A stretch of DNA of 64,000 nt from a virus, in the IMG/VR virus record IMGVR_UViG_3300021492_000072; one strand, written 5' to 3'. Under the pieces are notes generated by a model. It ran no database searches, was not told the DNA's origin, and saw nothing but the letters and a program-made list of their open reading frames with translations. Both the position numbers and the translations under genes were made by a program. Shown here piece by piece: positions 12,295 through 45,167 of the stretch (position 1 is its first letter; each line of letters begins with the position of its first letter).

Positions 12295-13317
12295 ATGGAA
12301 AAGTGTGGTATGGTTGTAAAGGTAAAGAACGAAGATAGGTTCTTCGATTCTCTAGCTAAATACCTGTTCTTCAAAGAGTTAAAAAGAGCATACGAGATCA
12401 AGGTTGATGAAAAAGGACGTCCTATTACATTTATTACTAAAAGAGTCAAAGGTAGGCTTAGACACATCCCAATCCCGTTAGAAAGGTTAAGAGAGGAAAA
12501 GCTAAGTGATGCTGGTAAAAGATTGATTGAGATGAATACTATGAGATTGGTAGGACAAAGTGCTAAGATAAACGAGGGTGGGAAGAGCTTTCTCAGGATT
12601 GGAATGAAAGATTTAATAGGTGCGTTGAGTTTTGAAGGAAAGATAGGATCCAGGTTGAGTGAGGTCTGTAAAGCACCGGGAGCGATGGCGTGTGCTGCTA
12701 ATATGATAGGACTGGATTCGTATGATGTGCGTAAGGTGGAATTAAAGAAGGGAGGTAATATAGATTTAGATGCCAAGATATGGAAAGGTGACGTTTCATT
12801 AGGTTTTGTAGGAAGTATTGAGAAAGAAAAAGATAAGTTGGTGATGTATCCTAGGAGGTTGGAGAAGGTTAAAGGTGGTGATGTGGATTGGGCTAAAAGA
12901 GTAGCGCGGGTGTTTAAGAGGAGTGGAGTAGATGAGGTTAAGGTAGCTGCTAGGGGAAAGGCGGATCATGTGTTATTTAGCATGCTGGGGGCGGAGTTTG
13001 AGAATCCAAGAGAGGCGAAGTTATTCACTGCGCTGGCTGTTAGTAAGTTAAAGGGAATGAAATTAGCCCGTGAGTGGCAAGTAAAGAAAATCATGATAAC
13101 TCTAGCGAAAGAACAAACGCAAAGTTTACCCAGGATTTTGGAAATATTTAGAGATACAATGTTCCCTAGAAGGCCGGGGTTCCCCACTACTGGAGAGGCG
13201 CCAGGTACTTATAAAGACTTCAAAAGGCTGTTAGAGTTAATATTCGGCAAGGGAGTCAGCAAGTACAGAATCCCTATGAAGGGAAATAAGCTATTAGACC
13301 TTTTGGTGAGAGGTTAA
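12295..13317 (+). CDS. Basic protein with possible degenerate GNAT fold and a weak copy of the cargo-like tag
   Basis: ARVFKRSGVDEVKVAA...LFSMLGAEF resembles GNAT motif A/B; FITKRVKGRLRHIPI near N-terminus. Confidence 0.55.
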   Translation: MEKCGMVVKVKNEDRFFDSLAKYLFFKELKRAYEIKVDEKGRPITFITKRVKGRLRHIPIPLERLREEKLSDAGKRLIEMNTMRLVGQSAKINEGGKSFLRIGMKDLIGALSFEGKIGSRLSEVCKAPGAMACAANMIGLDSYDVRKVELKKGGNIDLDAKIWKGDVSLGFVGSIEKEKDKLVMYPRRLEKVKGGDVDWAKRVARVFKRSGVDEVKVAARGKADHVLFSMLGAEFENPREAKLFTALAVSKLKGMKLAREWQVKKIMITLAKEQTQSLPRILEIFRDTMFPRRPGFPTTGEAPGTYKDFKRLLELIFGKGVSKYRIPMKGNKLLDLLVRG

Positions 13318-13318
13318 G

Positions 13319-14284
13319 GTGTTAGAGTTTATACCACTTAGGAATAGGCAAGGTAAACTATTCTGGATACATGTATCGGAGTTTGAGCCGTGGAGGATTA
13401 AAGATCCCAAGACGTTACAACATATTCTGAACTTATACTTTGGATCCATTACGGTGGATAAGCTGGGAAGGTCTATGCTCACCAGTGATGGTTACGTCTT
13501 TCTGAAAGAAACCTTACCTGATTACCTCTGGAACGAAATAAAGCGTAAGAAGTACAAAAATACTATTGAGGTCTTTAGAGAGGCATCTCATCATCCAAAG
13601 GCTATACACCAGCTTGCTAATGCAATGGGTGATGTTTCCTACTTATCCGACTTCGCGATTAGGAAGGACTACATATTTGCCGAAGGTGGGATGCGTAGGT
13701 TATATAAGGCGGGGATTAGAATCCCATTTGAACCTTTATCCCCAAAATGGATGGTGAGTTCACAGGTTCCAAGAGTTCCAGTGGTCTTTGGGCCCAAGCT
13801 ATTTGGCAGAGAGATGTCAGGAAAGCACCTACAAAAGATATATCACAATTTACTGGTTGAGAGTGGACAAAAGGCTTTTATTGTCAGGCCAGGTCCGAGT
13901 AGTTTCATCACATATGCGAAGCTGGGTGCGAATTATCCAACTAAGAGCGGTAGGAAGTCGCTTGTAAAAGAGATGCAGAGATTAATCCCATACATACGTA
14001 AGTCCGGGCAAGAAAGGGAAACTGATATGCTCATGCATGTTTTAGAAAGATGGAGTGAGGGGGCGGATAATCTACAAAAGCTATATAGGGACACCTTGGA
14101 GTTGGTCAAAAAGAAGGAAATACCAGTTAGTTTGTTCCAGAGGTTTTGGTACCGAATGAGCGCCTTCGAACGTGAACTAAAGTTAGAGATAACCCCCGCT
14201 GTAAAACGTATGTTAAAAGAGGGTACTGTTTCATTCAGTGTAAAACGTTGGTTACGCGCGCCATCTAGTACGCGGTTTCAATAG
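13319..14284 (+). CDS. Basic protein with possible degenerate GNAT fold
   Basis: GREMSGKHL...SGQKAFIVRP...TYAKLGANY. Confidence 0.55.
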   Translation: MLEFIPLRNRQGKLFWIHVSEFEPWRIKDPKTLQHILNLYFGSITVDKLGRSMLTSDGYVFLKETLPDYLWNEIKRKKYKNTIEVFREASHHPKAIHQLANAMGDVSYLSDFAIRKDYIFAEGGMRRLYKAGIRIPFEPLSPKWMVSSQVPRVPVVFGPKLFGREMSGKHLQKIYHNLLVESGQKAFIVRPGPSSFITYAKLGANYPTKSGRKSLVKEMQRLIPYIRKSGQERETDMLMHVLERWSEGADNLQKLYRDTLELVKKKEIPVSLFQRFWYRMSAFERELKLEITPAVKRMLKEGTVSFSVKRWLRAPSSTRFQ

Positions 14285-15388
14285 CTTTCTAGGAATCCTC
14301 TTACGATATTTTATACAAATTTCAATAGTGTTCTTGATTTCTTCTTCAAGAGTAATTGAAGGCTTGTAACCAAGGCTGTCTAAGATTCCTTTCTCTACTT
14401 TGTATAAGTCAATGTCTTCTCTTTCAACTCTTGGATTGGGATAGTACTTCATCTTTGTAAAAATACCAAATTCCTCCATTGAGATTCTTTTAACAGTTCT
14501 AGCCAAGTCTTCCAGCCTATAGACTTCCATTAACTGATTAACTAGCCTATACTCTCCACGTTTGGGTGGGTTCTCTAATAACAAACGAAGGCATTGAATG
14601 GAGTCTCTTAAAGGTAGGAAGCCTCTCTTTTGATTCCCCGAACCATAGACGGTTAATGAGACATCTTTAGTCGCAGCTTCGGCGCATAGACGATTGAGAT
14701 AAGTCCCAAACAGTTCATCTGCGTCAAAGCGTGTGAATAAGAGTTCGTCTTTCCCATCTATTTCCTCGGTTAATACACCAAAGACTACACCTTGCATCAC
14801 GTCAGTTACTGTTAATCCCCAGCAGTTGCACGCTAACTCTAGATAAAGAGAGCCTAAGATTTTTGTATCGTGGTAGAAAGAGATTCCTCTACGGGGGTAT
14901 GGTAGGACTTCCTTAAACGGTCCGTAGCTGATTTCCAATCCTTTTTCTGAAATAGGGATGTTAGACGCCGCGTACTCTCCCAAAGTTCCGATTACTATTA
15001 CATGCACATCCATTTTTAATTCTCGTAGAGCCCAAACAAGGTTTAAAGGTCCAATAGTGTTGGTGAACGTAGTTTCAAAGCAGCTATCACGGTCCTTCAT
15101 TGAGTACGGCGCACTAGGTTGATGTGCTAAGTATACAATAGCGTCTGGATCGACTCTACGGAGTACGTCTAAGAAGTGAGGCCAATCAGTTACGTCACAG
15201 ACTTCGAAGCCAATTGATAAGGCGTGAACCCTGTCTTCTACTGACGCAATTGGGGTTATAGACGTTGCGACCTTCCTTCTGAAGAGGTTGTCGATACCAT
15301 AAACCTCGAACCCGCGCGCTACTAAATTCTGCGCTAATGCAAATCCTATAAAACCATCTATACCTGCGATTAGAACCTTACCACGCAT
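14252..15388 (-). CDS. sqdB: UDP-sulfoquinovose synthase (SQD1/SqdB/Agl3 family, extended SDR)
   Basis: GIDGFIG, DNLFRR, QPSAPYSM, GTLGEY, FYHDTK, WGLxxTDxxQGVVFG, TRFDxDxxFGTxLNR, LTVYGxGxQxRGF, NPRVE. Confidence 0.9.
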   Translation of the reverse strand: MRGKVLIAGIDGFIGFALAQNLVARGFEVYGIDNLFRRKVATSITPIASVEDRVHALSIGFEVCDVTDWPHFLDVLRRVDPDAIVYLAHQPSAPYSMKDRDSCFETTFTNTIGPLNLVWALRELKMDVHVIVIGTLGEYAASNIPISEKGLEISYGPFKEVLPYPRRGISFYHDTKILGSLYLELACNCWGLTVTDVMQGVVFGVLTEEIDGKDELLFTRFDADELFGTYLNRLCAEAATKDVSLTVYGSGNQKRGFLPLRDSIQCLRLLLENPPKRGEYRLVNQLMEVYRLEDLARTVKRISMEEFGIFTKMKYYPNPRVEREDIDLYKVEKGILDSLGYKPSITLEEEIKNTIEICIKYRKRIPRKLLKPRTRWRA

Positions 15389-15462: not shown

Positions 15463-16866
15463 TTATAGCTCAATCACGGCGTATCCACCCCTCCCCATGC
15501 CCTCAAAGTAGAGTCGAATCGCTTCCCTTGTGAACCACCAGGCCATTACGCAGTCATCATAGGTGCTATAGGGATAACTTAGCACTTCACGTTTCCATGC
15601 GCAAAAAGAACACTCACAACCAGGGTCATGGCTCCAATAGGGGATGTGCCACATATTATTATCTAATTCAACTCTTAAAGACGGGATGCCAACATTGACA
15701 TAGTGCTTTTGCGTACCTGTGTAATAAGACTTTATGGGGAGCTTCCTTAGTTCACCCACCCAATCAAATAGCATTTGCTGGGTAGCGTTGGACTCAACTA
15801 GGATCACTTCTGGTTTATACTTCTCGTACTCCCTGATCAGTAATCTCGCGACTTCAGGTGCGGCTGCTTTGACTCTTATTATGTTAATCGGCCACCGCAT
15901 ACGTGTTTCTGCGTGGACGCCCGTCGTGAATAAAACTGAGTAGTCCTTACCATGACCACCAGAGATATCAACTCCCATGTATTTTCTGACATATGGTTCC
16001 GTAAGGCTTGTATACTCGGGTGGGTTGGAACCGGGAGTGAGAGGCCAATCATGTCTCTGTTTGAAGCACTCTCTAGAGAATAACACAGTCTCCACCCGAA
16101 TGGGCTGCATCCGGAAACCTTTTTCAAACGCCAGTGGATCATCCTTCCACTTGTCGTACAGCTTCTCTCGTGGCCATACTTGAGGCCATAAAGGATCAAA
16201 GTTCTCATTTATCTTCCATATCTTACGACACCAACCTTTCTTTCTTAGAAGGTCAGCGTATACATCTTCCTCTGCCCATGTAGTGCCGATGACCACAACT
16301 TGGTGACCTTGTGGTTCTAGTGTGTTCATCCAGACGTCAAAGAACGCTTCTTTTACCTTTCTTATCATACCTTTTGTAGCTGCTGTCCTGTTGTCACATA
16401 TGTCATCGCAAATAAGGAGGTCACTTCTTCCTCCAGTACCAGTCGCAATTATCCCTTTACCTTCTACTGTTGCGTCTCTGAGCGCCAAGCTTCTCTCCAC
16501 AAAGATTCTTTCTTTAGTCCAGTACCTAGCTTTAGATGGTCTTACATGAGGGAAAATAGCACGGTACTTTGGTGAAAAAAGCAGTGTTTGAGTGATTGCT
16601 GATAAAAGTTCCTTCGCCTTTTCGTTTGAGTTCGCAACTATCTTGATCCTGATATTAGTGTTGAGTCCGATCCTCCAGCATGGGTAGGCTATGGAGACAA
16701 CCGAACTTTTCCCGTGTGCTCTTGGAGAAAGGATGAGAATTTTCCGTTTAGTTTCCAAGAGTGTACACCATTGTTTATGGAGGTCCGCTAGGGGGAAGTC
16801 GAAGACGAAGGTTAGGAATGATGCGAAACTTTCGCGGCACAATCTCCGGAGTGTTTTGATGTTCAC
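15463..16866 (-). CDS. terL: Terminase large subunit
   Basis: Walker A PRAHGKS, Walker B LLICDD, motif III VIGT, RNase H-like GVDIS ... DDCVMA. Confidence 0.95.
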   Translation of the reverse strand: MNIKTLRRLCRESFASFLTFVFDFPLADLHKQWCTLLETKRKILILSPRAHGKSSVVSIAYPCWRIGLNTNIRIKIVANSNEKAKELLSAITQTLLFSPKYRAIFPHVRPSKARYWTKERIFVERSLALRDATVEGKGIIATGTGGRSDLLICDDICDNRTAATKGMIRKVKEAFFDVWMNTLEPQGHQVVVIGTTWAEEDVYADLLRKKGWCRKIWKINENFDPLWPQVWPREKLYDKWKDDPLAFEKGFRMQPIRVETVLFSRECFKQRHDWPLTPGSNPPEYTSLTEPYVRKYMGVDISGGHGKDYSVLFTTGVHAETRMRWPINIIRVKAAAPEVARLLIREYEKYKPEVILVESNATQQMLFDWVGELRKLPIKSYYTGTQKHYVNVGIPSLRVELDNNMWHIPYWSHDPGCECSFCAWKREVLSYPYSTYDDCVMAWWFTREAIRLYFEGMGRGGYAVIEL

Positions 16867-17132: not shown

Positions 17133-17689
17133 TTAAAGTACCTCATTGGTAAAAATGCATATGGTGTTGCTAGAGAAATTTCACCTAAACTTACAGGTTC
17201 TGACTTCTTTGCGCGCTCGGTTCTTGTTACACACCTAAGATTCCCAGCACTGGTTTCCGACACTTCAACTTCATTCGTCTCTATTGAGCCCTTAGGACGA
17301 ACGCGTGATTTTATTTCACCTCCGGCATAGCACCATACATCTACAACCTTGTTATCTTTTGTAACAAGACCAACTAGGTTGTTTGAGGTAAGTTTAGCTT
17401 CTTGAGGTGGGAACTTTATAGCACCTTCTTCCATGTCCTCTTCCGCTACACACACGTAGTCAGGTGAAAGGGCTTCTGTCAGTTCAGCTAACGTTGCATT
17501 TGCTGGCTGAATGTAATCAGGTTCAGTGAACAACTTTCCACGGTATATAGTAGGTTTGGACCGCAGGATGCCCTTGCTTATTCGTCTCTTAACCGTGTCG
17601 TCAGGCGTCGACACGAATAAGCTGCCAAAGGTAATAGTCCATATTCCAACTACTCGGTTGGATTTTACTTCAATAATGAAACCTCTCAT
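17108..17689 (-). CDS. Hypothetical protein
   Basis: Coupled between portal fusion and terminase genes. Confidence 0.7.
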   Translation of the reverse strand: MRGFIIEVKSNRVVGIWTITFGSLFVSTPDDTVKRRISKGILRSKPTIYRGKLFTEPDYIQPANATLAELTEALSPDYVCVAEEDMEEGAIKFPPQEAKLTSNNLVGLVTKDNKVVDVWCYAGGEIKSRVRPKGSIETNEVEVSETSAGNLRCVTRTERAKKSEPVSLGEISLATPYAFLPMRYFKWAEKRKS

Positions 17690-20600
17690 TATTCACCCTC
17701 CTTCTTTAGGAGTTTGAGGAGGTATTGTTCTTCAGGACGGCGTTTTGGCGCCACCCAGACAATCCCCACCTCCTTCTTAAACCATTCAAACGCGGCTTCC
17801 CTCCATTTACCACCTAACACGATGCCTCTTAAGTGGCGCCACACGTTAAATTTTGCGTCTTCGCTCCACCCGTGCTTATTTAGGTAAGCAAAGATTTTGT
17901 TCGCAACCGGCACCTGCTGTTCTTCCGATGTCAGTTTTGTCACAAACTTGGCGACTAACTTACGAAAGTCTTTACCCTTTGCCGCTTCTTGGAATTTGAT
18001 AAACCACTTTTCACGCTTAGCAGCTTCGATGACTTTCTTTTTCTTCTCCCATGGCCTTTTCAAAGTCCATTTGACTTTCATTTCTTCTTCGAACCATTTA
18101 TACGCATCTTGTCTTGGTTTACCACCAGACTGAATGTTTTTCAGCCGCCGCCATACGTTGTACATTGCATCCTTACTCCAGCCTTGTCTGTCCAAGTAGG
18201 CGAAGATTTTGTTCACTATGAGCTCACACTGTTCCTCAGGCGCAAGTCTCGCTACGAACTCAACAACTACGTTGTGAAAGTCCTTACCTTTAGTGTCCGC
18301 CAAGAACTCGAATAACCTCTTATATTTTTCTCTTTCGCGTTTTAGAATTGCTGCAGTAACGGGCCTCTTCCGTGCTTCCTCTAATGCTTTTAGCCTCGAA
18401 AACTCCGTCATTTTATTCAGTTGCTTACTAAATCCTTGCACGTCAATTACTCCCTCTTTCTCTAACTCCAGTAATAAACCCTTGTCACTCCTAGACGCGG
18501 CTATAATCCTACGAATCATCATGCCAACCGTATCCCAGTTCTGTGCTTCTGTGGATGCCATAACGGTCAAAGTGGCTTCTATTGCTTCCCTTATTTGATC
18601 AGGGTTGAGCTTCAGCTTTTTCATCGCTTCAACAAACTCTTTCCACATCCCTTCGGTCTTGAGCTTAGCGAGGGGTTTTACCGCTACTGCCTTCATTAAA
18701 GATAAGAAGTAATCGTAAAGTTCGGGTGAACTGTACCGCAAGATTGTGGGCTTGGTTACAAATGTCGCGAATAATTCAGCGAAGGATTCTGCTGGGTCTG
18801 AGATAGCGTACACCCGAAGAGGGATAGATAAGTTTTTCGTAATCTCAGGTAACCTGTCTTGGAGCGGTTTGATGAGAGTTTCGCGTATATACGACGAACT
18901 AGCCAGTAAAGCTGCTTGAAGCTGGCCCTTCTGTTCCTTCTCTACTAAGTACTCAAGAAAACCAATTAATTTTGCTACTTCTTTTTCACTCTTTGCATAT
19001 AAAGTAGCCCTTTCTACAAAGGGATACAGGATCCCATAGAGGTAGACCTGTCCGTAGGTGGACCCCAGTAATGTGTTGTACATAACGTGGCGTTCGAAGA
19101 TGTGGTGACCTAACTCATGAAGTATTTGGTAGAGGTTGGGAGTAGCCACAATAGACGAGTTGAATGATTCCATAAACTTCTCATACCCGCGTCCCAAGAT
19201 GTACGACGCGTTAAATGTTGAAGTAGTCTTACTAAATCCAATATAGTTGAGTCCTTCCCATATAGCTGGGACTCTTAAGAAGGGGTAGGTTTCTAACAGG
19301 GACCGGATGTATGGTTCGATCTTTTCGTCGACGTAGGGAATTCTTTTCATAATCGCATCAACACTTGTTACAGCGGGCCAAGGCCGCCCCAGTCTCTCAA
19401 GTGACTTGCCAACCCATTTTTTGTAAGAACTTGGTGTCCAAAGTGTTGATGCTAGGAAGTCTTCAAACGCTACTTTACCAGGTATTTCCCTATGAGGTGT
19501 GAAGATAACCGCGCGAAACATGTGTTTAAAGAACAACATCGGATCCACATACGCTTCTTTAGGAAAGTCGAGTGGTAAGGTGAACTTCTCAAAAGGCGCC
19601 AAGTTCCCAAACTTCCACGCCTCTTCCAATTTAATGTACGGTTCTTTGCCGAGTTCTATACCAACCTTTCTGAACACTTTCCACAAGCGAGTTTCCCACA
19701 CATCCTCACGAGCCTTTTGCATTATAGCTGCGAGCTGGGCTGTAATGGGTGAGTATGGGTCGAGAAAGTTGTTCCTAAACATTAGGTTCTCAACAACTGC
19801 GTCAACAAACGCACTTCTTACTGTTGAATGTGTTGCTTTTGCAGGGATGTACAGCGTGTTTTCCAGCGGGTTATAATATGGTGTCTCAGCCGCCGTGGTT
19901 GTTATTTTGTCAAACAAAGCAAAGTAAGCAGGTTCACGTAATCGAGGTTCTTTTAGTAAAATATCCCGGATTTTCTTATCGACATGATCAAGCGCGCCTA
20001 TTGCCAGCAGCTCGGACTTGGGTAAGTGCAGGCCTCTTACTGGGATGACTTTTTGGAGCCAATCTACTTCAAACCTGGTCTCCTCTATATCGACAGGAAT
20101 TAACACGCACCGACATTTACCGTTACATCTTACTCCCCTAGCTTTGTAAGGCTCACCGCAGCCCGGCCACCTACCTATAAACTCAAGTTCAGTTTGCGAG
20201 AAGACTTTACCGTGCATCTCCCGACAGTCTTGGCACATGTTCTCATCGCCAGTGCCAACCCATTTGTAATAGATGGTTTTGCCTTTTAGGGTAAAAAATC
20301 GAGTTACAGCCTGGAGGGGTAAGTGTGTAAGGTAACCAACGAACGCACCCGCCGCCAGGAAGCTTAGGAGTAACTTATGTAAATCATCTCTTACTTTGTC
20401 CCAATCTCTCTTTTCTGCGTCTTTCTTGACTTCTTGATATTTTGAAGTCCACTGACGAGTCATATAGTCGTTAATCTTCTTTAATGAACGTACAGTTTCA
20501 GCGTCGACATAATCTTTGTCATAAGAAGGCCAGTACCTATCTACCCAGTAGTACCCTGTCTGAAGAGCGTCAGGGGTCACATCTTTCAAGGCGTTCTGAA

Positions 20601-22014
20601 TTTGCGTGTAGAACCATTTGTCCAATGGATCGAGTGTAGGGGTAACGTCTGCTCTGACTAGCATGAACTTTTCGCACAGTTTCTCTGTGAGCTCCTCATG
20701 TACTTTCCTGAGCTTTTTGGTTAGCTTCATTGAAAGAGTCATCCGCTTGGATACAAAGTCAGCTGTCTTAGGGTCACTAATCAGGTTCAAGTTACGTACG
20801 CTTTCTAGATATTCTAACTCGGCAGCTCTTTTTATCTCTTGAAACGGGTCCTCTGATTCAGCTCGAGCTGGGGTCACAACTATAGGTTCTTGGGTAGGGG
20901 GTTTTGCTTCCCCACCAGGAGGCTTCGTCCCACCAACAGGTGTGAGACCTTGTGGTTGCAAGATAGTGAGTGTGTCACCACCTTGAGCGGGTGGTAAGTG
21001 CAGGAATGCCCTTGCTTCGTTAGGTGAAATAAGCCCAGACCTCGCAGCTAGTAGCAACTCTGATATAGTATGAGCGGGGGGTATTTTGAATCTTATATTG
21101 ATACCGTAAGGGCGGAGAAAGTGATTGAGTTGATCTTGGATAGCTGTTACAATATGAGGTGTGTAGGTCGAATACAATAAAGGTCGCGCGGTTTGCCTAC
21201 CTAAACTATCTCCAGGATTGGAAAAACCAAACGCTGAACGTACCAGCCAATCCATTCGGTCTAAGAAGGAGGTTATGAGTTGAACGTCTAGTTGTTTTAC
21301 TATGTCAATCCACTCGCCTCTACCAGCACCCCAAAGAATTGGCACTTTAGTTGACTGTTCTTGAACTAAGTTGGTTAAGTCTGCCTGTAGTTTTTCTATT
21401 ACCTCCTTTCCTACGTCCTCTTGCACTACGAAAACACCAATTGGTGGCCTTCCTTTCTTGTGCATTCGCTGGAGTGAGTAAACCAAATTAGTGATCTCGT
21501 AAGTTAGAGACTCAATGATAGATAAGGATCCAATAGTGTAGGTCCTCTTAACCCCAGCTATAACAATAACCTCGTCTGGTTTGAATTCAAATTTTTTACC
21601 GTTGACCTCCTGAATGTATCCTAAGAGAACCCCATCTTTTCTAAACACAGGAGCGAACGTGCCCGCGTCTCTTGCGGTAAAACTTTTTAGCTGAGATCCA
21701 AGCGTGAATACAGGTAATATAACACCTTTGTTGACGACAAGCATGTCAACAACACATGCTTGGAGAACTTCCTTAAATGTCTCACCTGTGGGACCTACTC
21801 CCTCAAAAAGAGCGGAGATTACTCCCTTCTTAAATGGATGAGACACTTTCACTTCAAAAGGGAGCCCAGCGATCGTTGTCGCAATTTGATCAACACACCT
21901 TCTTATTGTGTTAGTGTCCCTATATATCTGTCTCAAGACCGAAGCTTGTAAAGAAGTTGTGTATGACCACTGGATTGATGTGTCAAAAGACGTCACTCCC
22001 TTCAACTTATCCAT
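17689..22014 (-). CDS. Portal protein fused to MuF (SPP1 gp7-like) domain, zincin-like metallopeptidase and a duplicated C-terminal domain
   Basis: Portal: RRCVDQIAxTIAGLPF, FKPDEVI, GLISPNEAR. MuF: YKWVGTGDENMCQDC...CNGKCRC. Peptidase: HELGH...YAISDPAESFAE. Two KGKDF...NKIFAYL..GWS.DA..NVWR.L repeats. Confidence 0.85.
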   Translation of the reverse strand: MDKLKGVTSFDTSIQWSYTTSLQASVLRQIYRDTNTIRRCVDQIATTIAGLPFEVKVSHPFKKGVISALFEGVGPTGETFKEVLQACVVDMLVVNKGVILPVFTLGSQLKSFTARDAGTFAPVFRKDGVLLGYIQEVNGKKFEFKPDEVIVIAGVKRTYTIGSLSIIESLTYEITNLVYSLQRMHKKGRPPIGVFVVQEDVGKEVIEKLQADLTNLVQEQSTKVPILWGAGRGEWIDIVKQLDVQLITSFLDRMDWLVRSAFGFSNPGDSLGRQTARPLLYSTYTPHIVTAIQDQLNHFLRPYGINIRFKIPPAHTISELLLAARSGLISPNEARAFLHLPPAQGGDTLTILQPQGLTPVGGTKPPGGEAKPPTQEPIVVTPARAESEDPFQEIKRAAELEYLESVRNLNLISDPKTADFVSKRMTLSMKLTKKLRKVHEELTEKLCEKFMLVRADVTPTLDPLDKWFYTQIQNALKDVTPDALQTGYYWVDRYWPSYDKDYVDAETVRSLKKINDYMTRQWTSKYQEVKKDAEKRDWDKVRDDLHKLLLSFLAAGAFVGYLTHLPLQAVTRFFTLKGKTIYYKWVGTGDENMCQDCREMHGKVFSQTELEFIGRWPGCGEPYKARGVRCNGKCRCVLIPVDIEETRFEVDWLQKVIPVRGLHLPKSELLAIGALDHVDKKIRDILLKEPRLREPAYFALFDKITTTAAETPYYNPLENTLYIPAKATHSTVRSAFVDAVVENLMFRNNFLDPYSPITAQLAAIMQKAREDVWETRLWKVFRKVGIELGKEPYIKLEEAWKFGNLAPFEKFTLPLDFPKEAYVDPMLFFKHMFRAVIFTPHREIPGKVAFEDFLASTLWTPSSYKKWVGKSLERLGRPWPAVTSVDAIMKRIPYVDEKIEPYIRSLLETYPFLRVPAIWEGLNYIGFSKTTSTFNASYILGRGYEKFMESFNSSIVATPNLYQILHELGHHIFERHVMYNTLLGSTYGQVYLYGILYPFVERATLYAKSEKEVAKLIGFLEYLVEKEQKGQLQAALLASSSYIRETLIKPLQDRLPEITKNLSIPLRVYAISDPAESFAELFATFVTKPTILRYSSPELYDYFLSLMKAVAVKPLAKLKTEGMWKEFVEAMKKLKLNPDQIREAIEATLTVMASTEAQNWDTVGMMIRRIIAASRSDKGLLLELEKEGVIDVQGFSKQLNKMTEFSRLKALEEARKRPVTAAILKREREKYKRLFEFLADTKGKDFHNVVVEFVARLAPEEQCELIVNKIFAYLDRQGWSKDAMYNVWRRLKNIQSGGKPRQDAYKWFEEEMKVKWTLKRPWEKKKKVIEAAKREKWFIKFQEAAKGKDFRKLVAKFVTKLTSEEQQVPVANKIFAYLNKHGWSEDAKFNVWRHLRGIVLGGKWREAAFEWFKKEVGIVWVAPKRRPEEQYLLKLLKKEGE

Positions 22015-22116: not shown

Positions 22117-22686
22117 ATGTTGCCCTTCAAGATTAAGCGACCATACATAGCTTTTGTGGGGTCAGCAGTGACCTCGCTTGTCAGTCACGATCTAGATGTC
22201 ATGTTTTTTACACTACAGCTTAAAGATGATGTGGTAGCACAAAAGTGCATCAAAATGCTATCACGCTATCTTCCAACCCGAACTCATTACATCGAGGCTA
22301 GCTATATCACTCCTTTTTCGCCTTACGTCCCACTGTACGACCTTGTCGCTATGCCTTACGAATGGACACATAAACGTTACGCACCCCTCTACCCAAAGAG
22401 TGCAAAGGGCCCGTACATCTCTATCAGTACGCGTCATCTTCACCAAAAAGCACCTCGGCGGCTTGTAGTTTGGTTAGGGTGTGTGCGCTACTTGAAACCT
22501 AAGCATACTTTTTACGTACCAAAAGAGTTTAACATGTACTACTATGTCCCTCTGTACATCCGTCTAACACGAATGTTTCCCATCAATAAAAGACCAGTTG
22601 TTTCAAAAGCAGATCCGCCCCAAGGAGCGCTTGCAGTGTACAATTTAGTGCTGGAAAAACAACCTTACCGCAAGGTAGAAATGTGA
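22117..22686 (+). CDS. Pol-beta-type nucleotidyltransferase-like protein
   Basis: AFVGSAV...HDLDV matches hG[GS]..DhD; YVPLY occurs twice. Confidence 0.55.
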   Translation: MLPFKIKRPYIAFVGSAVTSLVSHDLDVMFFTLQLKDDVVAQKCIKMLSRYLPTRTHYIEASYITPFSPYVPLYDLVAMPYEWTHKRYAPLYPKSAKGPYISISTRHLHQKAPRRLVVWLGCVRYLKPKHTFYVPKEFNMYYYVPLYIRLTRMFPINKRPVVSKADPPQGALAVYNLVLEKQPYRKVEM

Positions 22687-24005
22687 TGAGTAGTGTCGTA
22701 GACGAACTCTTTGGTTCACTCCCACCGGGCTGGAGAGTTGCCCACTTATGTTCGGCATGTAAGTACTTTAAACCCAAAACTTTCACATGCTCAGCATTCC
22801 CTGAGGGGATCCCAAGTGACATAATAGAAGGCTTTATGCCGCACACTAATGTGTTTCGGGGTCAAGTAGGGGACTACGTGTTTGAGCCAAAAACGGACTT
22901 TAAACTGTCAGAGCTCTTTGGGGTAACTGAAGACTTAACCCGCCGAGTTTTCAGACCAAAAGAGGACATCATAAAGTGGATAACATATAAAGGACGTAGA
23001 ATTCCTATTTTCAAAAAACGCCCGCCTACCAAGTCATACAAAGCCCTGGGCCAGCTTTTAACGGCTGTAAGCGGAGTTACACTTGAAGCATCCTTCCAAG
23101 CCATAAAAAGGTTCGCCAGGTTTCTAGAGAAGAAAGGCGCGGAGTGGATAACCGTAGACGATCCTATTTGGAGAAGACATGTGAAAAGAATTGAGGATTA
23201 CTTCCCCCTCCGTGATGTGGGGTATTATAAAACTAATGGTGATATGTACCTACCCCAAATAATGCGCGTTCATAGGACGTTACGGAAGCTCGAAAAGCGG
23301 TTCCCAGGGATATTATCCGGTGTGCGTATAACATGCGTCCCTCAAGGTAGAACTCCTAGAACGAAAGCCTTTGCTACTATAGACAGAGCGCACTTGGAAG
23401 GCGGGGCCCTTCTCAAAAGTCCTAAGTTTGACGATCTTTATTTTGGCAAAATCTTTAAGCACGCCGGGATTGTAAAAGAACACACAACTTACAGCCAGAT
23501 ACGGTCTGCGTATTGGATTCCTGAAACGCATTTAAGCGACCTAGAAAACTTGAGCCTTTATACTGAATATTTTAAGCGTCGCTTTGGAGGTATAGAGCCT
23601 CCCTTGGTGGCTTTTGTATCCTCAAAATACACAGCTACCTGTTACCCTTCCATGAATCACATTGTTCACGAATTTGGTCACATATTTCACAACAAACACA
23701 ACAAGCTTAGAGAGTTTATGCTTGACGTATACGCACCCTACTTAGGGAGGTGCATTAAAGCGGGTTTTGACAAATTCCCGCTCCAGCCGATGTCTGGACG
23801 TGCAAAATTACCGCGTCTCACAGCACTATTCCAAGTAGATACCAAATTCAGAAGCGCGGTTTACACTCCTTATTCGTTAGTCGACCCATTCGAAGGCTAC
23901 GCTGAGGCATTTAAAGGGTACATCATCCATCCACAGATTCTAAAGCGCAAGTGGCCCGAAGCGTATGAGTTCTTTCGAAAAATAGAAGAACAAGGTTTAA
24001 GTTAA
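22683..24005 (+). CDS. Multidomain effector-like protein: Cys/His domain + tag + zincin-like metallopeptidase
   Basis: CSAC..C.AFPEGIP..I..G...H; KWITYKGRRIPI; HEFGH...YS..DPFEGYAEAF. Confidence 0.75.
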   Translation: MMSSVVDELFGSLPPGWRVAHLCSACKYFKPKTFTCSAFPEGIPSDIIEGFMPHTNVFRGQVGDYVFEPKTDFKLSELFGVTEDLTRRVFRPKEDIIKWITYKGRRIPIFKKRPPTKSYKALGQLLTAVSGVTLEASFQAIKRFARFLEKKGAEWITVDDPIWRRHVKRIEDYFPLRDVGYYKTNGDMYLPQIMRVHRTLRKLEKRFPGILSGVRITCVPQGRTPRTKAFATIDRAHLEGGALLKSPKFDDLYFGKIFKHAGIVKEHTTYSQIRSAYWIPETHLSDLENLSLYTEYFKRRFGGIEPPLVAFVSSKYTATCYPSMNHIVHEFGHIFHNKHNKLREFMLDVYAPYLGRCIKAGFDKFPLQPMSGRAKLPRLTALFQVDTKFRSAVYTPYSLVDPFEGYAEAFKGYIIHPQILKRKWPEAYEFFRKIEEQGLS

Positions 24006-24046
24006 TGTACTTGACACTTCAAGCGGTGAGTACTAGTTAACCAGTA

Positions 24047-25021
24047 ATGGAACGTGTTGTCTTCTTCGTGACGCGAAAGCCCAAGTTCGCCCCCAGTCCT
24101 TTCTACCTAGAAGGACGCAGGCCAACCGACAAGTATTTATGGGATCCAATTATTGACCTACTTGAGCGTAAAGTCGTAACTTGCCCAGACGGAAAACCAG
24201 GTCATTGGGTGACATTACCTGGAGGCCGTAAGGTTTGTATCCCAGAGTCGTATTGGCGGAAGAAAGCACTTACTGCGGGTGTAACTGCGGGTACGGTTAC
24301 TGCTGCTGTTACAGCTGCTACGCTCGCAGCGTCAGCGCGGGTTCGGGCTTTTGTTCGTGGTCTTCATTTCACCCCCGAAGGTGCGATACAGCCGCTATTG
24401 GGGCGACGCGGTCTGAACTTTATACTAAAAAGCCCCGATGTTGTGAGTCGATCTTTTCGCGCCGCTGCTCTGACTGGATTTAAAGTGCGACGTTTTGGGT
24501 ATTATGAGTATAGGGGTGTGAGGGGTTTGATGATCGATGGGTCGCTAAAGAATTTTCCAGAGTCCAAGTTCTTGTACGCCACAACGAAAGATCCAGATGT
24601 GCTATGGGCCGGATTGATTTCTATTCCAAAGGCATCGCGTAAGGCATCACGTGACCTCTTTAGAGGTGTCTTTGACTTAACGCGCGCGAGCGGTGCGTCA
24701 AAAATACGATTCATAGCAGGACTTGAAAATGGATCATCAATGTGGGCACGTTTAGGTGGTAAGTGGGTCGACAAGGGTGCTGAAAATGCGTGTAAGCGAG
24801 CAATCTTAGAGCGGCGTAGAAGCATTGGCTACCCCGCTGACTTAGACAGACTCATCACCGAAGCACGAACCCCAAAAGAGTTAGTACAAAAATTGGATGA
24901 GAGGTTGGGTAAATCAGGCACACGCAGACTTCTAAGAAATGTTGAATGGTGGGGGGAACTCGACTTGAAAGATCCTCAAGTCAGGTCCTTTTTATTAAAG
25001 TTAACAGGACAGAAGTTGTGA
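24047..25021 (+). CDS. Tag + hydrophobic helix + GNAT-like domain protein
   Basis: CPDGKPGHWVTLPGGRKVCIP; Ala/Thr/Val helix; SGASKIRFIAGLENGSSMWARLG. Confidence 0.7.
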   Translation: MERVVFFVTRKPKFAPSPFYLEGRRPTDKYLWDPIIDLLERKVVTCPDGKPGHWVTLPGGRKVCIPESYWRKKALTAGVTAGTVTAAVTAATLAASARVRAFVRGLHFTPEGAIQPLLGRRGLNFILKSPDVVSRSFRAAALTGFKVRRFGYYEYRGVRGLMIDGSLKNFPESKFLYATTKDPDVLWAGLISIPKASRKASRDLFRGVFDLTRASGASKIRFIAGLENGSSMWARLGGKWVDKGAENACKRAILERRRSIGYPADLDRLITEARTPKELVQKLDERLGKSGTRRLLRNVEWWGELDLKDPQVRSFLLKLTGQKL

Positions 25022-32291: not shown

Positions 32292-32825
32292 TTAAGCCCC
32301 AAGCGCGCTCCTTATTTGTTCGTAAAGCTTGGTGCCTTTCTTAGCAAGCCCAGCTTTATCGACACACACCTCAAACACAATGAACCCAGTACGAGGGTCA
32401 ACAAGATCTACTAAGATAAGTGCGGCTTCATTTTTACTCTCAACGGGATTGAGTCTTGTATTTAAATAAGTCATGTAGGATTTGGGTTTCTTCATCCCTT
32501 TGGTTACATCCACAGGTTCTTCCTTCTTCATAAGCTGGATCAACTTTTTAAAGGCATCAGTGGTTTTAGGTTTGGCGGTCTCACGTACTAAATACTGAGC
32601 GAAGTTAGACTGCACGTAAGCGACGTCACCCATCACTCGATGTGCGGTCGCTAGTTTGTCAACCGGTCCTTCGAGCTTCACTGAAGATATGAGAGTCTCC
32701 TTTAGTGACTCAAAACTCTTGGGATGAGTCGCGACGGCAACTAATCCAAGTCCCCGAGTGCCTAGAAAGACCGTGACTCGTGGATTTGCCTTCCCCACAG
32801 TTAACACAGAACCTTGCTTCTTCAT
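32292..32825 (-). CDS. Hypothetical protein, paralog of the N-terminal half of 43917..44945
   Basis: Shared GPVDKLA...GDVAYVQSNxA and LNTxxNP. Confidence 0.8.
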   Translation of the reverse strand: MKKQGSVLTVGKANPRVTVFLGTRGLGLVAVATHPKSFESLKETLISSVKLEGPVDKLATAHRVMGDVAYVQSNFAQYLVRETAKPKTTDAFKKLIQLMKKEEPVDVTKGMKKPKSYMTYLNTRLNPVESKNEAALILVDLVDPRTGFIVFEVCVDKAGLAKKGTKLYEQIRSALGA

Positions 32826-32831: not shown

Positions 32832-33191
32832 TTACCTCCTTTTAGATTTTTCCTCGATCTCTCTACGTCTCCGCCTCGCCTGCAAGTTAATCCCAGCAGC
32901 CGAAGCTGCTATAATGGCTCCTAGCATACCCAACTTTTCCCCAAGAGCGCGGTAGCCGAGTGCTGCCATTGAGGTTTTGCACCGACTCGCTAAGAGTTCT
33001 CCACCCAAGAGTCCTATCGCTGCTATACCCGCGCCAATTGTGGAAATCTTTTCACTCACTTTTTCGTCATTCGTCCACTTTTGATACGCTTTTATATTCT
33101 TCTCTTCGATGAATACACGCTTACCCGCTCTTGTTGTGACCCAAATACCTCTCTTTCCTCGAAAGGTTGTAATTTTTGGTTTCCTAGACAT
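32832..33191 (-). CDS. Tag + glycine-zipper membrane hairpin protein
   Basis: ITTFRGKRGIWVTTRAGKRVFI, then two Gly/Ala helices. Confidence 0.8.
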   Translation of the reverse strand: MSRKPKITTFRGKRGIWVTTRAGKRVFIEEKNIKAYQKWTNDEKVSEKISTIGAGIAAIGLLGGELLASRCKTSMAALGYRALGEKLGMLGAIIAASAAGINLQARRRRREIEEKSKRR

Positions 33192-33513
33192 TTTCTTCCT
33201 CCTTATATCTAGTTACTAGAGACACGCCCGCGCCTGCGATTGCAATAGTAACGCCCATCTTGCTGAGTTTACTACCGAGTGCACGGTACCCAAACTTTGC
33301 AAAAGCAGTTCTACATTGTAACGCAAGTGACGCACCGCTCTTAACACCAACAGATGCTATAGCCGATCCGACACCGCTAACCCACCTAATGGCCTTTTTA
33401 CTATTGGTCCATTTCTGATATGCTTTTATGTTCTTCTCTTCTATGAATACACGTCTGCCTGTCCTTAATGTGAACCAAGCACCTCTCTTCCCTCTATAAG
33501 TAGTGATCCTCAC
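33184..33513 (-). CDS. Tag + glycine-zipper membrane hairpin protein (tandem paralog)
   Basis: ITTYRGKRGAWFTLRTGRRVFI; identical VFIEEKNIKAYQKWTN. Confidence 0.8.
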   Translation of the reverse strand: MRITTYRGKRGAWFTLRTGRRVFIEEKNIKAYQKWTNSKKAIRWVSGVGSAIASVGVKSGASLALQCRTAFAKFGYRALGSKLSKMGVTIAIAGAGVSLVTRYKEEENV

Positions 33514-33839: not shown

Positions 33840-33840
33840 C

Positions 33841-40291: not shown

Positions 40292-40293
40292 AC

Positions 40294-41950: not shown

Positions 41951-43843
41951 ATGAAGACAACTATAATCACTTTTGATGAACAGAAGGGTGTTTTAATACA
42001 GCACTTGCTGCAATGGAAAGACTTCCCTAAGATAGTAGCGTGCGATGAATCCGATCGAACTTTGTACAGAGAGTTGGGGTGTAAAACAGTTCCACGTGGA
42101 ATGAACTTCCTTGAAACGTTTAAGCGCCTAATCTCAGCAGTTAACACCGAGACGTTTACCTTTATCTACCCAGGATGCTTCGTAAATCCTAATTACTTCC
42201 TGGAAGCAGCTAACATCTTAAGAGCACCTAATGTAGGCTTACTAGCACCAGGTCTGGATGTTGCAGCTGGACCACAAGCGGCTAGCCAACACATTCAGTT
42301 CAGACAATCAGTAAGAGTAGCACCATGGTGTTTTAGTGGACGTACCTCACAAATTAAGTCGAGCTTAAACACCAAACATCTTTTAACAGGCTTTGATGTA
42401 GTCCCCTACATTTGTACTACTCTCGCCTTAGAAGGCTCGTTTCAAGTTGTATGTTCCAAATATATCCTCCAAGTACCAGTAAGCTTAAAGGATCGTGTAA
42501 AAGAAGCTGATTTAGGACATTACTTACTAACCCAACCTGTTAAGCCACTCAACCCCGTGCTCGTTTACACAGGACGTGGTAGGGTCCCACCTCATGCAGC
42601 GGCGTTATTCTCAAAAGTAATAAAAGCACCGCTTGAGTCGGTGGAGCAGCCACGTGACGCGTTAGTGTTCGTATTAAACGAGGGAGAGGATTTTGACCCC
42701 TCAGTAACTAAAGAGAAGATCAAAAGATTGTGTACACCTGTTGACCCAGCAACGCTTGCTTACTACGTGTGCGTTGTTGACGTGTGGAATGAGTATAAAG
42801 TCGGGAACCTTAATTGGTCCCTCAGAGCCTTACGGAGTGGTACCCCAAAACTAAACTCCATAATTCAATCGAACCCAGAACTAATCCCTGGAGACGCAAA
42901 GCGAACCTCAGGGGTTGTTATTCGCAGGGGACTAAAGGACCTGCCGAGAGCAACACTAACGGTTCAACCCTTCACCCCTCCTTCTCTCACAATAGCTACT
43001 ATTATGAAGAACGAGAAGGACCGGCTCGCGGCTTATTTGAGTTTAACTCTCCCGTTTGCTGACGAAGTATTATTGGTTGATACGGGCTCACGGGACAAGT
43101 CGGATAAGCACGCTAGAAAGTTCGGTGCGAGGGTTATAAACTTCAAGTTCAGAGATCACTTCGCCGAAGCGAGGAATGCGTATTTAAAGGAGTGTAAAAC
43201 TAAGTGGTTGCTCCACTTAGACATAGATGAGGTAACGGACTTCAAGAAAGTAATGAACTTAATTTTATCGGACCTCCCATCAGTAGATGGAGTTCAACTT
43301 CAGGTGTTGAACGTCATGAAGCGTACTCGCTCGTATGTACATCAAGACGCGGTCCGCATCATCAAGAACCCGAACTCGTGGTACTATACAGGAAGAGTTC
43401 ACGAAACTGTAGAAGAGTGTGCCGCAAAACACTCTAAATCTTTAATCAGGGCATCTGGGTTAGTCATATATCATTTTGGTTACCTCTCCTCCAATGTCCC
43501 TAGCAAGTTAGAGTACTATCGGAAGCTTAACGAATTACAAATGCAGGAAAACCCATACGACTGCCGACCTTACTTTAACCTTGCCCTACACGAGTTAAAT
43601 CACCAGGAGTTAACTGATGAACAAATTGATAAAGTTATTAGAATGTTGAAGAGAAGTATAGAATTACACAGCACTTTCGTACTTGCGAAATATGAGTTAA
43701 GCCGATGTTACTGCTTAAAGGCTCTCCAACTTATAGAGGATATCATGCAGCTTGCACCTCGTGATCATCCCTTATATAAAGAGGTGAGTGAGGTGTACAC
43801 CCTCTTGAAGAACTACACACGACGTATTATAGTTGAAGAATGA
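41951..43843 (+). CDS. Multidomain glycosyltransferase (degenerate GT-A + GT2 + TPR)
   Basis: IMKNE, VDTGSRD, FAEARN, LDIDE, YTGRVHE, IYHFGY; PYFNLA TPR-like helices. Confidence 0.88.
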   Translation: MKTTIITFDEQKGVLIQHLLQWKDFPKIVACDESDRTLYRELGCKTVPRGMNFLETFKRLISAVNTETFTFIYPGCFVNPNYFLEAANILRAPNVGLLAPGLDVAAGPQAASQHIQFRQSVRVAPWCFSGRTSQIKSSLNTKHLLTGFDVVPYICTTLALEGSFQVVCSKYILQVPVSLKDRVKEADLGHYLLTQPVKPLNPVLVYTGRGRVPPHAAALFSKVIKAPLESVEQPRDALVFVLNEGEDFDPSVTKEKIKRLCTPVDPATLAYYVCVVDVWNEYKVGNLNWSLRALRSGTPKLNSIIQSNPELIPGDAKRTSGVVIRRGLKDLPRATLTVQPFTPPSLTIATIMKNEKDRLAAYLSLTLPFADEVLLVDTGSRDKSDKHARKFGARVINFKFRDHFAEARNAYLKECKTKWLLHLDIDEVTDFKKVMNLILSDLPSVDGVQLQVLNVMKRTRSYVHQDAVRIIKNPNSWYYTGRVHETVEECAAKHSKSLIRASGLVIYHFGYLSSNVPSKLEYYRKLNELQMQENPYDCRPYFNLALHELNHQELTDEQIDKVIRMLKRSIELHSTFVLAKYELSRCYCLKALQLIEDIMQLAPRDHPLYKEVSEVYTLLKNYTRRIIVEE

Positions 43844-45167
43844 AGAATTTGTTACGTCATAACCCGCTGTTTGAATGGTTTGACCTTGCTTAAGAAAGGA
43901 TGAATAAGAGGGGATGTCACCGATTCCTTTCTCTTCTTCTTCGATAGATCGCGGCAAGAATGGCAGCAACGACACCAATTGTAGCTCCAGCGTACATAAG
44001 AGGTTTTCCAAATTTAAGCCCAAGTTTAGAGATATCTCTCGAGGCATCAAGTATGTCAGACTGGTTTTTTGCCATCCATGAGGCACCTTTTAGCGCTTTT
44101 ACTGGATCTTGTTTAAACCCCTTTTTAAAGAGATTAAACATCAGTGCGTTGTCTTTTACCGCAGCATGTGCGGCCCCTGACGCAACACCAATACCAGATA
44201 ATAATAACCCCGCCCCAGCAGTAATCCCACCAAAGTTAACAAGTGATTTCAGTGCGCTTTCACGCCAATCGTGATAAGCATCTACTTTATCCTTTGGAAT
44301 AAAAACACGCCTACCAGTCTTTGTTGTAACCCAATATCCTAGTTTACCTTTCCACTCTGTCAGTTTTGCCTTTGTGGGTGTCTTACGTTCCAACGACCTT
44401 TTTATCGCTTCTAGCGTTTTAGTTCCAGCTTCAACTACTTGCTTTACACCATATACAAATTCGCCAAAAATAAGTCCTATTTTCTTATCTACAACAACAA
44501 ATACTTTAAAAGCCGGATTAGTGGTGGTAGGATTAAACGCAGTGTTCAAACCTAGACTATACGCTTCAGGAGAAACAATCTGAGGAGGGGGTGATGGTTT
44601 CGTTTTACTTATTTCTTTAAGAAATTCTTTACATAATTGACTAAAAGCGTTATTAGGCGCTTTACTTCCTAAGGCTACACATTCTGCTACGTTAGATTGC
44701 ACATAAGCAACATCGCCTAATGATCTATATTTAGCGGCTAACTTATCAACCGGTCCCGTTTGATACAAAATACTACGTAATTTTGGGTAATACTTTTGAA
44801 AAAGTGGTACATGAGTTATGATTACAGTCAATGCTATCCCACGTGCTCCAAATCTTGTAGAAATACGAGGACTTACTTTCGACACACCTAAAACTAAACC
44901 GTATTTCTTCATTTCTTCATTTACCCCCTCTTTCTTCATCTCCATCTAAACTCAAGATGTAAAGGGCGTCAAGCCCTGGGTGATCAAAGACATATAGGAG
45001 AGGAAGAGACTGAACTTGAAAGTTTGTAAGTTTCGTCTTATAGAAATCATTATGCAGCTTGCACCTCGTGATCATCCCTTATATAAAGAGGTGAGTGAGG
45101 TGTACATTCACACGTCGTATTATAGTTGAAGAATGAAGAATTTGCTACGACATAACCCATTGTTTGA
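43730..45167. mobile_element. Moron-like insertion bounded by ~140-bp direct repeats (43730-43874 and 45037-45167)
   Basis: Both copies contain the GT gene 3' end and the MKNLLRHNPLFE start; a single opposite-strand gene with its own CTTGAC lies between. Confidence 0.8.
43917..44945 (-). CDS. Fusion of the 32292-type domain with tag + glycine-zipper module
   Basis: GPVDKLA..GDVAYVQSN; LTEWKGKLGYWVTTKTGRRVFIP; two Gly/Ala TM helices. Confidence 0.85.
   Translation of the reverse strand: MEMKKEGVNEEMKKYGLVLGVSKVSPRISTRFGARGIALTVIITHVPLFQKYYPKLRSILYQTGPVDKLAAKYRSLGDVAYVQSNVAECVALGSKAPNNAFSQLCKEFLKEISKTKPSPPPQIVSPEAYSLGLNTAFNPTTTNPAFKVFVVVDKKIGLIFGEFVYGVKQVVEAGTKTLEAIKRSLERKTPTKAKLTEWKGKLGYWVTTKTGRRVFIPKDKVDAYHDWRESALKSLVNFGGITAGAGLLLSGIGVASGAAHAAVKDNALMFNLFKKGFKQDPVKALKGASWMAKNQSDILDASRDISKLGLKFGKPLMYAGATIGVVAAILAAIYRRRRERNR

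Follow-up and report, generated by a model that had tools for sequence, protein, structure and literature searches.

How phages choose the proteins that are packed into the head and injected is understood for a few model phages only. The unrelated T4 head proteins IPI-III and Alt have in common a short element, the capsid targeting sequence, a peptide of some 10 residues at the N terminus, which the prohead protease removes after loading, and encapsulin cargo carries short, unfolded, mostly C-terminal loading peptides that bind the shell protein. A conserved, folded header marking cargo in many uncultured phages would offer a sequence handle for injected effectors in metagenomes and a defined element to mutate for loading or ejection tests, and it might also be used to load capsids with proteins of choice. 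Polyvalent proteins have two to fifteen effector-type domains per polypeptide, and their autoproteolysis by their own metallopeptidases has been proposed (Iyer, Burroughs, Anand, de Souza, and Aravind 2017, J Bacteriol, PMC5512222); MuF toxins form a related literature (Jamet et al. 2017, PMC5576092).

Here, we report a small folded tag common to six otherwise unrelated proteins of a 131-kb uncultured phage, for which no cultured relative was found. Like the T4 sequence, the tag is a short element common to otherwise unrelated, putatively head-destined proteins; it is not a short N-terminal peptide, having instead about 40 residues with a predicted fold, and proteins carry it N-terminally, internally, or C-terminally and often more than once. 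Encapsulin peptides resemble it in concept only, as portable elements that load varied enzymes into an HK97-fold shell, and have no sequence likeness to the tag. Polyvalent and MuF effectors have in common with the tag system their repertoire (zincin metallopeptidase, ART, and kinases) and a packaging link through portal/MuF and portal-terminase genes, and the tag itself occurs inside proteins of this type; term searches in PMC5512222 and PMC5576092 gave no inter-module header, and no Pfam model covers the tag. Unlike in polyvalent proteins, the putative cargo here is divided among genes for single bodies, Gly/Ala helices being present in most; each tagged protein has one body or none, and the portal-MuF protein is untagged; as with polyvalent proteins, packaging genes (TerL, portal-MuF, S78 protease, and capsid) flank the tagged genes.

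The window (the whole stretch of DNA analyzed, 64,000 nucleotides) contains seven copies (six strict and one short) of the motif G-x-W-[VI]-T-x2-4-G-[RK]-[RK]-[VI]-[FC]-[IV] in six genes. In a six-frame translation, the strict regular expression matched at 24200-24241, 30956-31000, and 32078-32119 on the plus strand and at 33108-33149, 33442-33483, and 44298-44339 on the minus strand, with no matches in 50 shuffles; a looser pattern gave one extra match (22977-23009, plus strand). A hidden Markov model (HMM) built from the copies scored 38 to 58 bits for each and found no further copy anywhere in the window. The six strong copies and the shorter one lie where, and in the frames in which, a preliminary description had claimed them. 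Two additional "weak forms" (12415-12477 and 13319-13375) were rejected as tag copies because the HMM did not match them even at an E value of ≤10.

Three carrier genes are on the plus strand. The first (22683-24005; 440 amino acids [aa]) encodes a Cys-rich N-terminal part, the short-form tag (core KWITYKGRRIPIF; 22935-23045, plus strand; 43.5 bits, HMM and translation), and a zincin-like body with the motif HEFGH. The second (24047-25021; 324 aa) has a tag with a Cys pair (C...GHWVTLPGGRKVCIP; 24164-24265, plus strand; 49 to 57 bits), an Ala/Thr/Gly helix, and a body without a family match. The third (30920-32170; 416 aa) is laid out as an N-terminal tag with a Cys pair (30923-31036, plus strand; 40 to 54 bits), a helix, an R2K-like ATP-grasp body, a Gly/Ala helix, and a C-terminal tag (32045-32158, plus strand; 51.6 bits). 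On the minus strand, a 119-aa protein (32832-33191) consists of an N-terminal tag (33066-33185; 57.8 bits) and two glycine-zipper helices, its 109-aa paralogue (33184-33513) of an N-terminal tag (33400-33510; 57.1 bits) and two Gly/Ala helices, and a 342-aa protein (43917-44945) has an internal tag (44256-44372; 55.8 bits) between Gly/Ala helices and a domain resembling an untagged 177-aa protein. The gene for the latter (32292-32825, minus strand; model pLDDT, 81.7) adjoins the tag-hairpin genes, and by alignment its domain is tag-fused not only in the 342-aa protein but also in P0020, P0027, P0039, and P0042. The tag can be N-terminal, internal (residues 192-230 of 342), or C-terminal (376-413 of 416).

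An ATP-grasp body had been proposed for the 416-aa protein and received weak but consistent support (R2K_3, E value of 4e-4; PDB 5ig9, E value of 0.05), and the distant orthologue P0053 matched the same family. The zincin-like assignment of the 440-aa protein is based on its HEFGH motif and a weak ATLF match (E value of 0.004), while neither Pfam nor PDB sequences supported a "GNAT-like" body in the 324-aa protein. Both the ATLF-like and the R2K matches lie below Pfam cut-offs, and the other bodies in the window have no family. The Ala/Gly helix said to follow the tag does so in six copies; in the ATP-grasp protein, the tag at the C terminus has the helix before it instead. Helices adjoining tags in the window are only moderately hydrophobic (Kyte-Doolittle, 1.3 to 2.1).

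The tag had been taken for a beta-hairpin; the AF2 model (22-sequence alignment; pLDDT, 84.6) instead predicts a domain of about 40 residues, with three strands (8-11, 14-20, and 26-30) and then a helix (31-44). Strand 2 carries the invariant W-[IV]-T, strand 3 carries G-[RK]-x-[VI]-[FC]-I, and the sheet is packed on the short helix. Among 84 instances, the W is conserved in 84, the T in 81, and the G in 83. All 11 instances with a Cys on strand 3 have an upstream Cys, which is found in 0 of the other 73, a covariation expected for a folded unit; the Cys pair reported to bracket two copies in the window was confirmed and is also seen in other phages. The tag had no match among Pfam, PHROG, or PDB-sequence entries, and a literature search found no published description of it.

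Head genes surround the tagged genes of this phage: the large terminase (15463-16866, minus strand; phrog_38, E value of 4e-62), a 1441-aa portal-MuF fusion protein (17689-22014, minus strand; phrog_12/2662 portal, with Pfam Phage_portal and Phage_Mu_F below cut-off), an S78 prohead protease with a scaffold-like coiled-coil tail (25941-27026, plus strand; Peptidase_S78, 58.5 bits; phrog_80), and a major capsid protein of SU10/HK97 type (27019-27957, plus strand; SU10_MCP, 48.8 bits; Phage_capsid, 33.2 bits). Two tagged genes lie between the portal-MuF and protease genes, on the same strand as the protease and capsid genes. The tag HMM did not match the portal-MuF protein, and MuF (PF04233), present in that untagged fusion, did not match any tagged protein of the window. 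Because the head modules of this phage also contain glycosyltransferases and an epimerase, gene position by itself is weak evidence for a head role.

An exhaustive search of 1.84 billion representatives with the tag HMM (threshold, E value of ≤1e-3) gave 48 matches, and all 25 exact pattern matches in IMG/VR were HMM supported. Giant polyvalent-type proteins carry two to seven tag copies (P0041, P0046, P0047, P0063, P0065, P0069, and P0040), multi-module relatives with the tag being 1,100 to 2,400 aa long. In other uncultured phages, the tag directly follows portal domains; tag and portal share one open reading frame (ORF) in P0081, L022 (102.5 bits), and L024 (59.1 bits), and tag and MuF share one in P0046, P0063, P0065, and G009. 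Elsewhere, the tag adjoins the portal gene (L018 and L021), lies 1 to 3 kb from MuF (G007 and G008), or occurs in five consecutive genes immediately upstream of the prohead protease (L015). These fusions and neighbors bear out, across independent phage lineages, the head association put forward in the preliminary description. The tag was also correctly described as a portable module on unrelated bodies: the fused bodies (ATLF-like zincins, DRAT-like ART, PI3/4-kinase-like proteins, thymidylate kinase, and ATP-grasp) match the repertoire of polyvalent proteins.

Some occurrences lie elsewhere. No recognized head genes were seen near the tagged genes of L017 and L019, and the gene for the tagged ATP-grasp protein P0053 of another phage has glycosyltransferase and AdoMet-decarboxylase genes around it. 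Two tagged genes of the sister genome G001 have DNA-metabolism and nucleotide-metabolism genes as neighbors: an 86-aa one is between SbcCD-like genes and NrdD, and a 448-aa zincin adjoins QueD; given these two genes and P0053, the tag is not confined to virion modules. Stand-alone proteins of little more than a tag (P0048, 54 aa; P0077, 65 aa) or with two tags (P0043) also occur and would be unusual if the tag were purely a label. The HlyD-family proteins P0057 and P0064, both bacterial, have three short hairpin-like matches each, which, if real, are non-phage occurrences.

In the reading that we prefer, at an even balance of confidence, the tag folds autonomously as a mini-domain, its family is undescribed, and it acts as a "header" on the proteins and modules that phage heads carry. 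In other uncultured phages, the header stands before every enzyme module of proteins that are portal-fused, MuF-fused, or of the giant polyvalent type, and this lineage encodes like putative cargo (zincin-like, ATP-grasp, and unknown bodies and small two-helix proteins) as separate genes that are often gained, lost, and duplicated, each protein keeping one header and the ATP-grasp protein two. By binding one common partner in the head machinery, for which the portal-MuF protein and the protease-scaffold are obvious candidates, the header may allow different bodies to be handled alike. Since it is also on portal-fused cargo, it more likely helps to retain, release, or eject the individual modules than merely to address them. 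The earlier term "cargo-addressing" therefore keeps its link to the head and loses its claim to the whole role, since copies on portal-fused cargo need no address. The Gly/Ala helices particular to this lineage may insert into the host membrane or bundle together after ejection.

A bolder extension, which we consider doubtful, is that the portal-MuF or scaffold machinery reads the W-[IV]-T header as a portable signal of general use, its carriers being packed into the capsid and expelled with the DNA, and that in this lineage the tagged two-helix proteins form a membrane conduit for the tagged enzymes (such as ATP-grasp and zincin) into the host. If true, this would amount to programmable delivery of proteins by a system other than the T4 capsid targeting sequence.

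Among alternatives to the header reading, it is possible, though unlikely, that the tag is a small nucleic-acid-binding domain with a three-stranded sheet and helix (as in AP2, integrase arm-binding, PC4, and PUR domains) that tethers the bodies to phage DNA. Such tethering could also explain how bodies travel with DNA, and in helix-bearing proteins it would link DNA to membrane. The beta3-alpha topology of the AF2 model agrees with this, and the order of secondary structures in AP2, lambda Int arm-binding, Tn916 Int N-terminal, PC4, and PUR-repeat domains is that predicted for the tag; in our reading, there is also a loosely similar pattern, [FY]-[RK]-G ahead of strand 2, G-x-W-V within it, and R-V-[FW]-[IL] on strand 3. 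The best, weak structural neighbors bind DNA or RNA (PUR repeat III, PC4/Sub1, chromodomain, I-HmuI, and Bxb1; Z of 2.8 to 3.7), and language-model neighbors include lambda-type and Tn916 integrase arm-binding domains (0.87 to 0.88, below the trust level). However, every fold match is at noise level (Z below 4): the top match is a chromodomain (Z of 3.7), PC4/PUR (Whirly-like) folds give a Z of 2.6 to 3.6 (rmsd of 3.4 to 3.8 over 43 to 45 residues; Foldseek E value of at least 0.65), and no solved member stands out. No HMM match links the tag to these domains either; 22 tags searched against Pfam at an E value of ≤10 retrieved no AP2 or integrase arm-binding family, and the AP2 and Arm-DNA-bind_4 HMMs (PF00847 and PF14657) had no match in G001 at the same threshold. 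Tags in this clade are strongly basic (mean net charge, +4.7), but the charge outside the clade runs from -4 to +9 (mean, +2.4), and basic positions are unconserved, conservation being limited to W, T, G, and hydrophobic positions. The stand-alone tag proteins and the position of the 86-aa tagged gene beside SbcCD-like genes also favor nucleic acid binding.

We think it rather unlikely that the tagged proteins are instead membrane proteins of the infected cell and not virion cargo, the tag being a juxtamembrane domain that assembles one complex, enzymes included. Nearly all tags of the clade lie directly beside a Gly/Ala-rich helix, the tag-helix-ATP-grasp-helix layout is retained in P0053, the related small proteins are a tag and two helices, a Rosetta-stone fusion joins the 177-aa domain to tag and helices, and some tagged genes are in nonstructural regions. 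Against this, the helices are only marginally hydrophobic (1.3 to 2.1), portal fusions and MuF fusions, both capsid internal, contain tags, and outside the clade a hydrophobic helix adjoining or near the tag is missing in most cases; the helix earlier credited with "membrane passage" is therefore a feature of this lineage and not part of the tag system. Least probable is a processing junction, a recognition or self-cleavage module where a prohead protease or one of the co-occurring zincins would cut polyproteins into separate modules, the single-gene copies here being remnants of that system: tags do lie at module boundaries in giant proteins (directly before DUF7178, kinase-like, and zincin bodies), zincins are the commonest fused body, and the metallopeptidases of polyvalent proteins are proposed to be autoproteolytic (Iyer et al. 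2017, PMC5512222), but the residues after the tag show no conserved pattern of a cleavage type, its predicted fold (AF2) is compact and no flexible linker, and terminal tags on small single-body proteins would separate nothing.

This lineage lends itself well to testing the header reading, since every putative cargo protein has a small gene of its own and the gene content varies among close relatives. G001 and this phage are 81 to 98% identical, and, in favor of the header reading, the tagged genes behave as cassettes between them: one difference is an indel of 1.3 kb, another an insertion between direct repeats, and a third a tandem duplicate. The 440-aa carrier gene is missing at the corresponding site of G001, which has a 448-aa homologue elsewhere; the 119-aa gene is taken as the tandem duplicate because it is absent from G001. 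The 342-aa gene, also missing there, is an insertion flanked by two copies of a direct repeat of about 130 bp (43730-43874 and 45037-45167, plus strand), identical at 110 of 130 positions, and one site in G001 matches both.

All peptides quoted in the preliminary description of this DNA were reproduced by translation, and the recurrence that it claimed was borne out: the strict pattern G.W[VIF]T.{2,5}G[RK][RK]V[FC][IV] occurred six times in a six-frame translation of the window and not once in 50 shuffles, with one extra, short copy (22977-23009) recovered by a looser pattern. The tag copies scored 38-58 bits with a profile built from them, and profile search found no further copies in the window, giant open reading frames (ORFs) included. 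Weak forms listed at 12415-12477 and 13319-13375 were rejected because they had no HMM match even at E<=10. The shared tag domain is real and statistically solid.

The conserved block was longer than the motif as first drawn and takes in the first strand ([IV]-T-x-[FYW]) and the following helix, with its conserved Y and W. An AlphaFold2 model of the tag (22 aligned copies) was confident (pLDDT 84.6), with three predicted strands (residues 8-11, 14-20, and 26-30) ahead of a helix (31-44). Across 84 instances, the W was invariant, the T was present in 81, and the G before strand 3 was present in 83; a G two residues ahead of the W was found in 70 of 78 tags. Cysteine replaced the strand-3 Phe in 11 tags, all 11 of which carried an upstream Cys that was found in 0 of the 73 others; such covariation, seen in unrelated phages, points to a folded unit that brings these positions into contact. 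In two tagged proteins (P0046 and P0063), the Cys pair was followed by G-H-x-H, which, judged from sequence, looks like a metal site. No tag family was found in Pfam, PHROGs, or PDB sequences (sub-threshold matches to DUF2442 and DUF2835 only), and Foldseek, VIA-align (wide search and second look), and ESM Atlas returned nothing specific for the 45-residue model, all fold neighbours being at noise level. No relevant publication was found by searching for the motif string or for capsid-targeting tags.

Word-indexed searching recovered orthologues only within the clade formed by the window phage and its close relatives. Searched exhaustively with the HMM, 1.84 billion representatives yielded 48 proteins at E<=1e-3 (P0045 and P0056 were excluded as spurious repeat matches), and the exact degenerate DNA pattern occurred at 25 places in IMG/VR, all 25 supported by HMM. 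Two bacterial membrane-fusion proteins of the HlyD family (P0057 and P0064) had three short hairpin repeats (PPGQWITMPSGERIFMVDQ) before a membrane helix; their kinship to the tag is uncertain, as the match is confined to the hairpin part of the profile. Outside the clade, the tag was often repeated within large proteins, with seven copies each in P0041 (2,440 amino acids [aa]) and P0046 (2,342 aa), six in P0047, and three each in P0040, P0065, and P0069. It also headed each of four consecutive genes at one locus (L026), and runs of tagged genes were found at four others (L015, with five genes, L017, L019, and L021). Bodies fused to the tag included MuF, intein-bearing MuF, DUF7178, ATLF-like zincins, other HExxH proteins, a DRAT-like ADP-ribosyltransferase, PI3/4-kinase-like domains, thymidylate kinase, and R2K ATP-grasp. 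Tag-rich proteins had no match in cultured phages or plasmids (tblastn).

There is good support for linkage of the tag to the portal and to MuF. Portal domain and tag shared an ORF in P0081, L022, and L024, where the tag followed the portal and headed a C-terminal extension, and MuF and tag shared an ORF in P0046, P0063, P0065, and G009. Tagged protein P0049 was encoded directly behind a portal gene, three tagged genes at locus L021 came after a pair of genes for TerL and portal-MuF, and MuF lay 1 to 3 kb from tags in contigs G007 and G008. The five tagged genes of L015 were immediately upstream of a prohead protease; in the window, the interval from portal-MuF to protease was filled by two tagged genes. 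Against a link to the head, tagged copies in the sister genome G001 (131-kb IMG/VR contig UViG_3300025163_000238) were in DNA-metabolism and nucleotide-metabolism regions, a tagged ATP-grasp (P0053) was among glycosyltransferase and AdoMet-decarboxylase genes, and some tagged loci had no recognisable head genes.

On balance, the evidence favours the tag as a header of cargo carried in the head, an element of syntax among polyvalent and MuF proteins. Iyer et al. 2017 (PMC5512222) described that polyvalent and MuF world, and searching their paper and Jamet et al. 2017 (PMC5576092) by term turned up no inter-module header of the tag type. Phage head cargo is a known theme, of which the tag is a variant that has not been catalogued. 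The preliminary description read it as an address label for the prohead, which is plausible for free-standing genes but is not the whole role, because portal-fused cargo, which is in the capsid anyway, keeps a header per module. A role that each module needs, such as retention, release, ejection, or binding of a common partner, would fit better.

Alternatively, the tag may be a DNA-binding beta3-alpha domain, as weak structural and language-model leads and the basic charge of tags within the clade suggest; however, these basic residues were not conserved outside the clade, and AP2 and Arm-DNA-bind_4 profiles gave 0 matches in G001 (E<=10). It may also be a juxtamembrane domain that assembles complexes in the host membrane. 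The hydrophobic helix, to which the preliminary description gave a part in membrane passage, was absent near most tags outside the clade. Finally, the tag may mark a processing junction.

Returning to the header of head-carried cargo, its carriers in the window were six genes. Two on the plus strand encoded proteins of 440 aa (22683-24005, with an HEFGH motif) and 324 aa (24047-25021). A third (30920-32170, plus strand, 416 aa) carried one tag at each end and matched R2K ATP-grasp weakly; the bracketing of this putative ATP-grasp by two tags was confirmed. These N- and C-terminal tags may pair in the manner of PUR repeats. A co-fold of two tag copies scored 0.02, where the mark was 0.42, which speaks neither for nor against pairing. 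The tagged ATP-grasp had a distant orthologue on a ~97-kb phage contig (L013/L014:8001-9842), directly upstream of two AdoMet-decarboxylase-like ORFs and surrounded by glycosyltransferase and methyltransferase genes, a setting that hints at action on polyamine or in a modification pathway.

On the minus strand, genes of 119 aa (32832-33191) and 109 aa (33184-33513) each comprised a tag and two Gly/Ala helices and adjoined an untagged 177-aa gene (32292-32825). The first half of the sixth carrier, a tagged fusion protein (43917-44945, minus strand, 342 aa), was homologous to the 177-aa protein, confirming a Rosetta-stone fusion. The model of the 177-aa domain was confident (pLDDT 81.7), with five helices and then a three-stranded sheet. 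No function was assigned, because its best structural match was weak (Z 5.8; helical part of anthrax lethal factor, Certhrax) and it had no HExxH motif; lacking the motif, the domain may have a zincin-like fold without activity.

The window is from a tailed phage, with a large terminase (15463-16866), a 1,441-aa portal-MuF fusion (17689-22014), an S78 protease whose tail is scaffold-like (25941-27026), and a capsid protein of SU10/HK97 type (27019-27957). Among the structural genes were also those for an NAD-dependent epimerase/dehydratase and two glycosyltransferases of family 2 (14252-15388, 29203-30018, and 41951-43843), so position there is weak evidence for a virion protein.

Compared with G001 (81 to 98% nucleotide identity), tagged genes behaved as cassettes. 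The 440-aa zincin gene was a clean 1.3-kb indel (window 22684-24009 versus G001 79019-79037), with a diverged 448-aa homologue in G001 ~60 kb off, by a QueD gene with a LAGLIDADG insertion (L005:16895-18235; L005 is a stretch of G001). The 342-aa gene was missing from G001 and was bracketed in the window by direct repeats of ~130 bp (43730-43874 and 45037-45167; 110/130 identical, with a 14-bp gap in one), both of which duplicate a gene junction and map to one G001 site. The 119-aa gene was an extra tandem copy in the window. G001 had an additional 86-aa tagged gene (L005:5832-6092), which had SbcCD-like genes on one side and, on the other, a sigma-region-4 gene and then NrdD. The N-terminal half of its product (G-x-Y-Y-L-x4-G-K-K-I-A...) resembled a degenerate second tag, to which the HMM gave no score, and P0014, P0018, P0019, P0044, and P0052 are considered together with this protein.

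A 440-aa ORF of G001 (L005:18449-19771) combined a LAGLIDADG endonuclease (residues 123-288) with a QueD-like 6-pyruvoyl-tetrahydropterin synthase (318-431), suggesting that a gene of the deazaguanine pathway contains an intein or has been invaded by a homing endonuclease. After the structural region of the window were two giant untagged ORFs, at 48031-54072 (2,013 aa) and 55883-64000 (>2,706 aa), the latter strongly different from its G001 counterpart.
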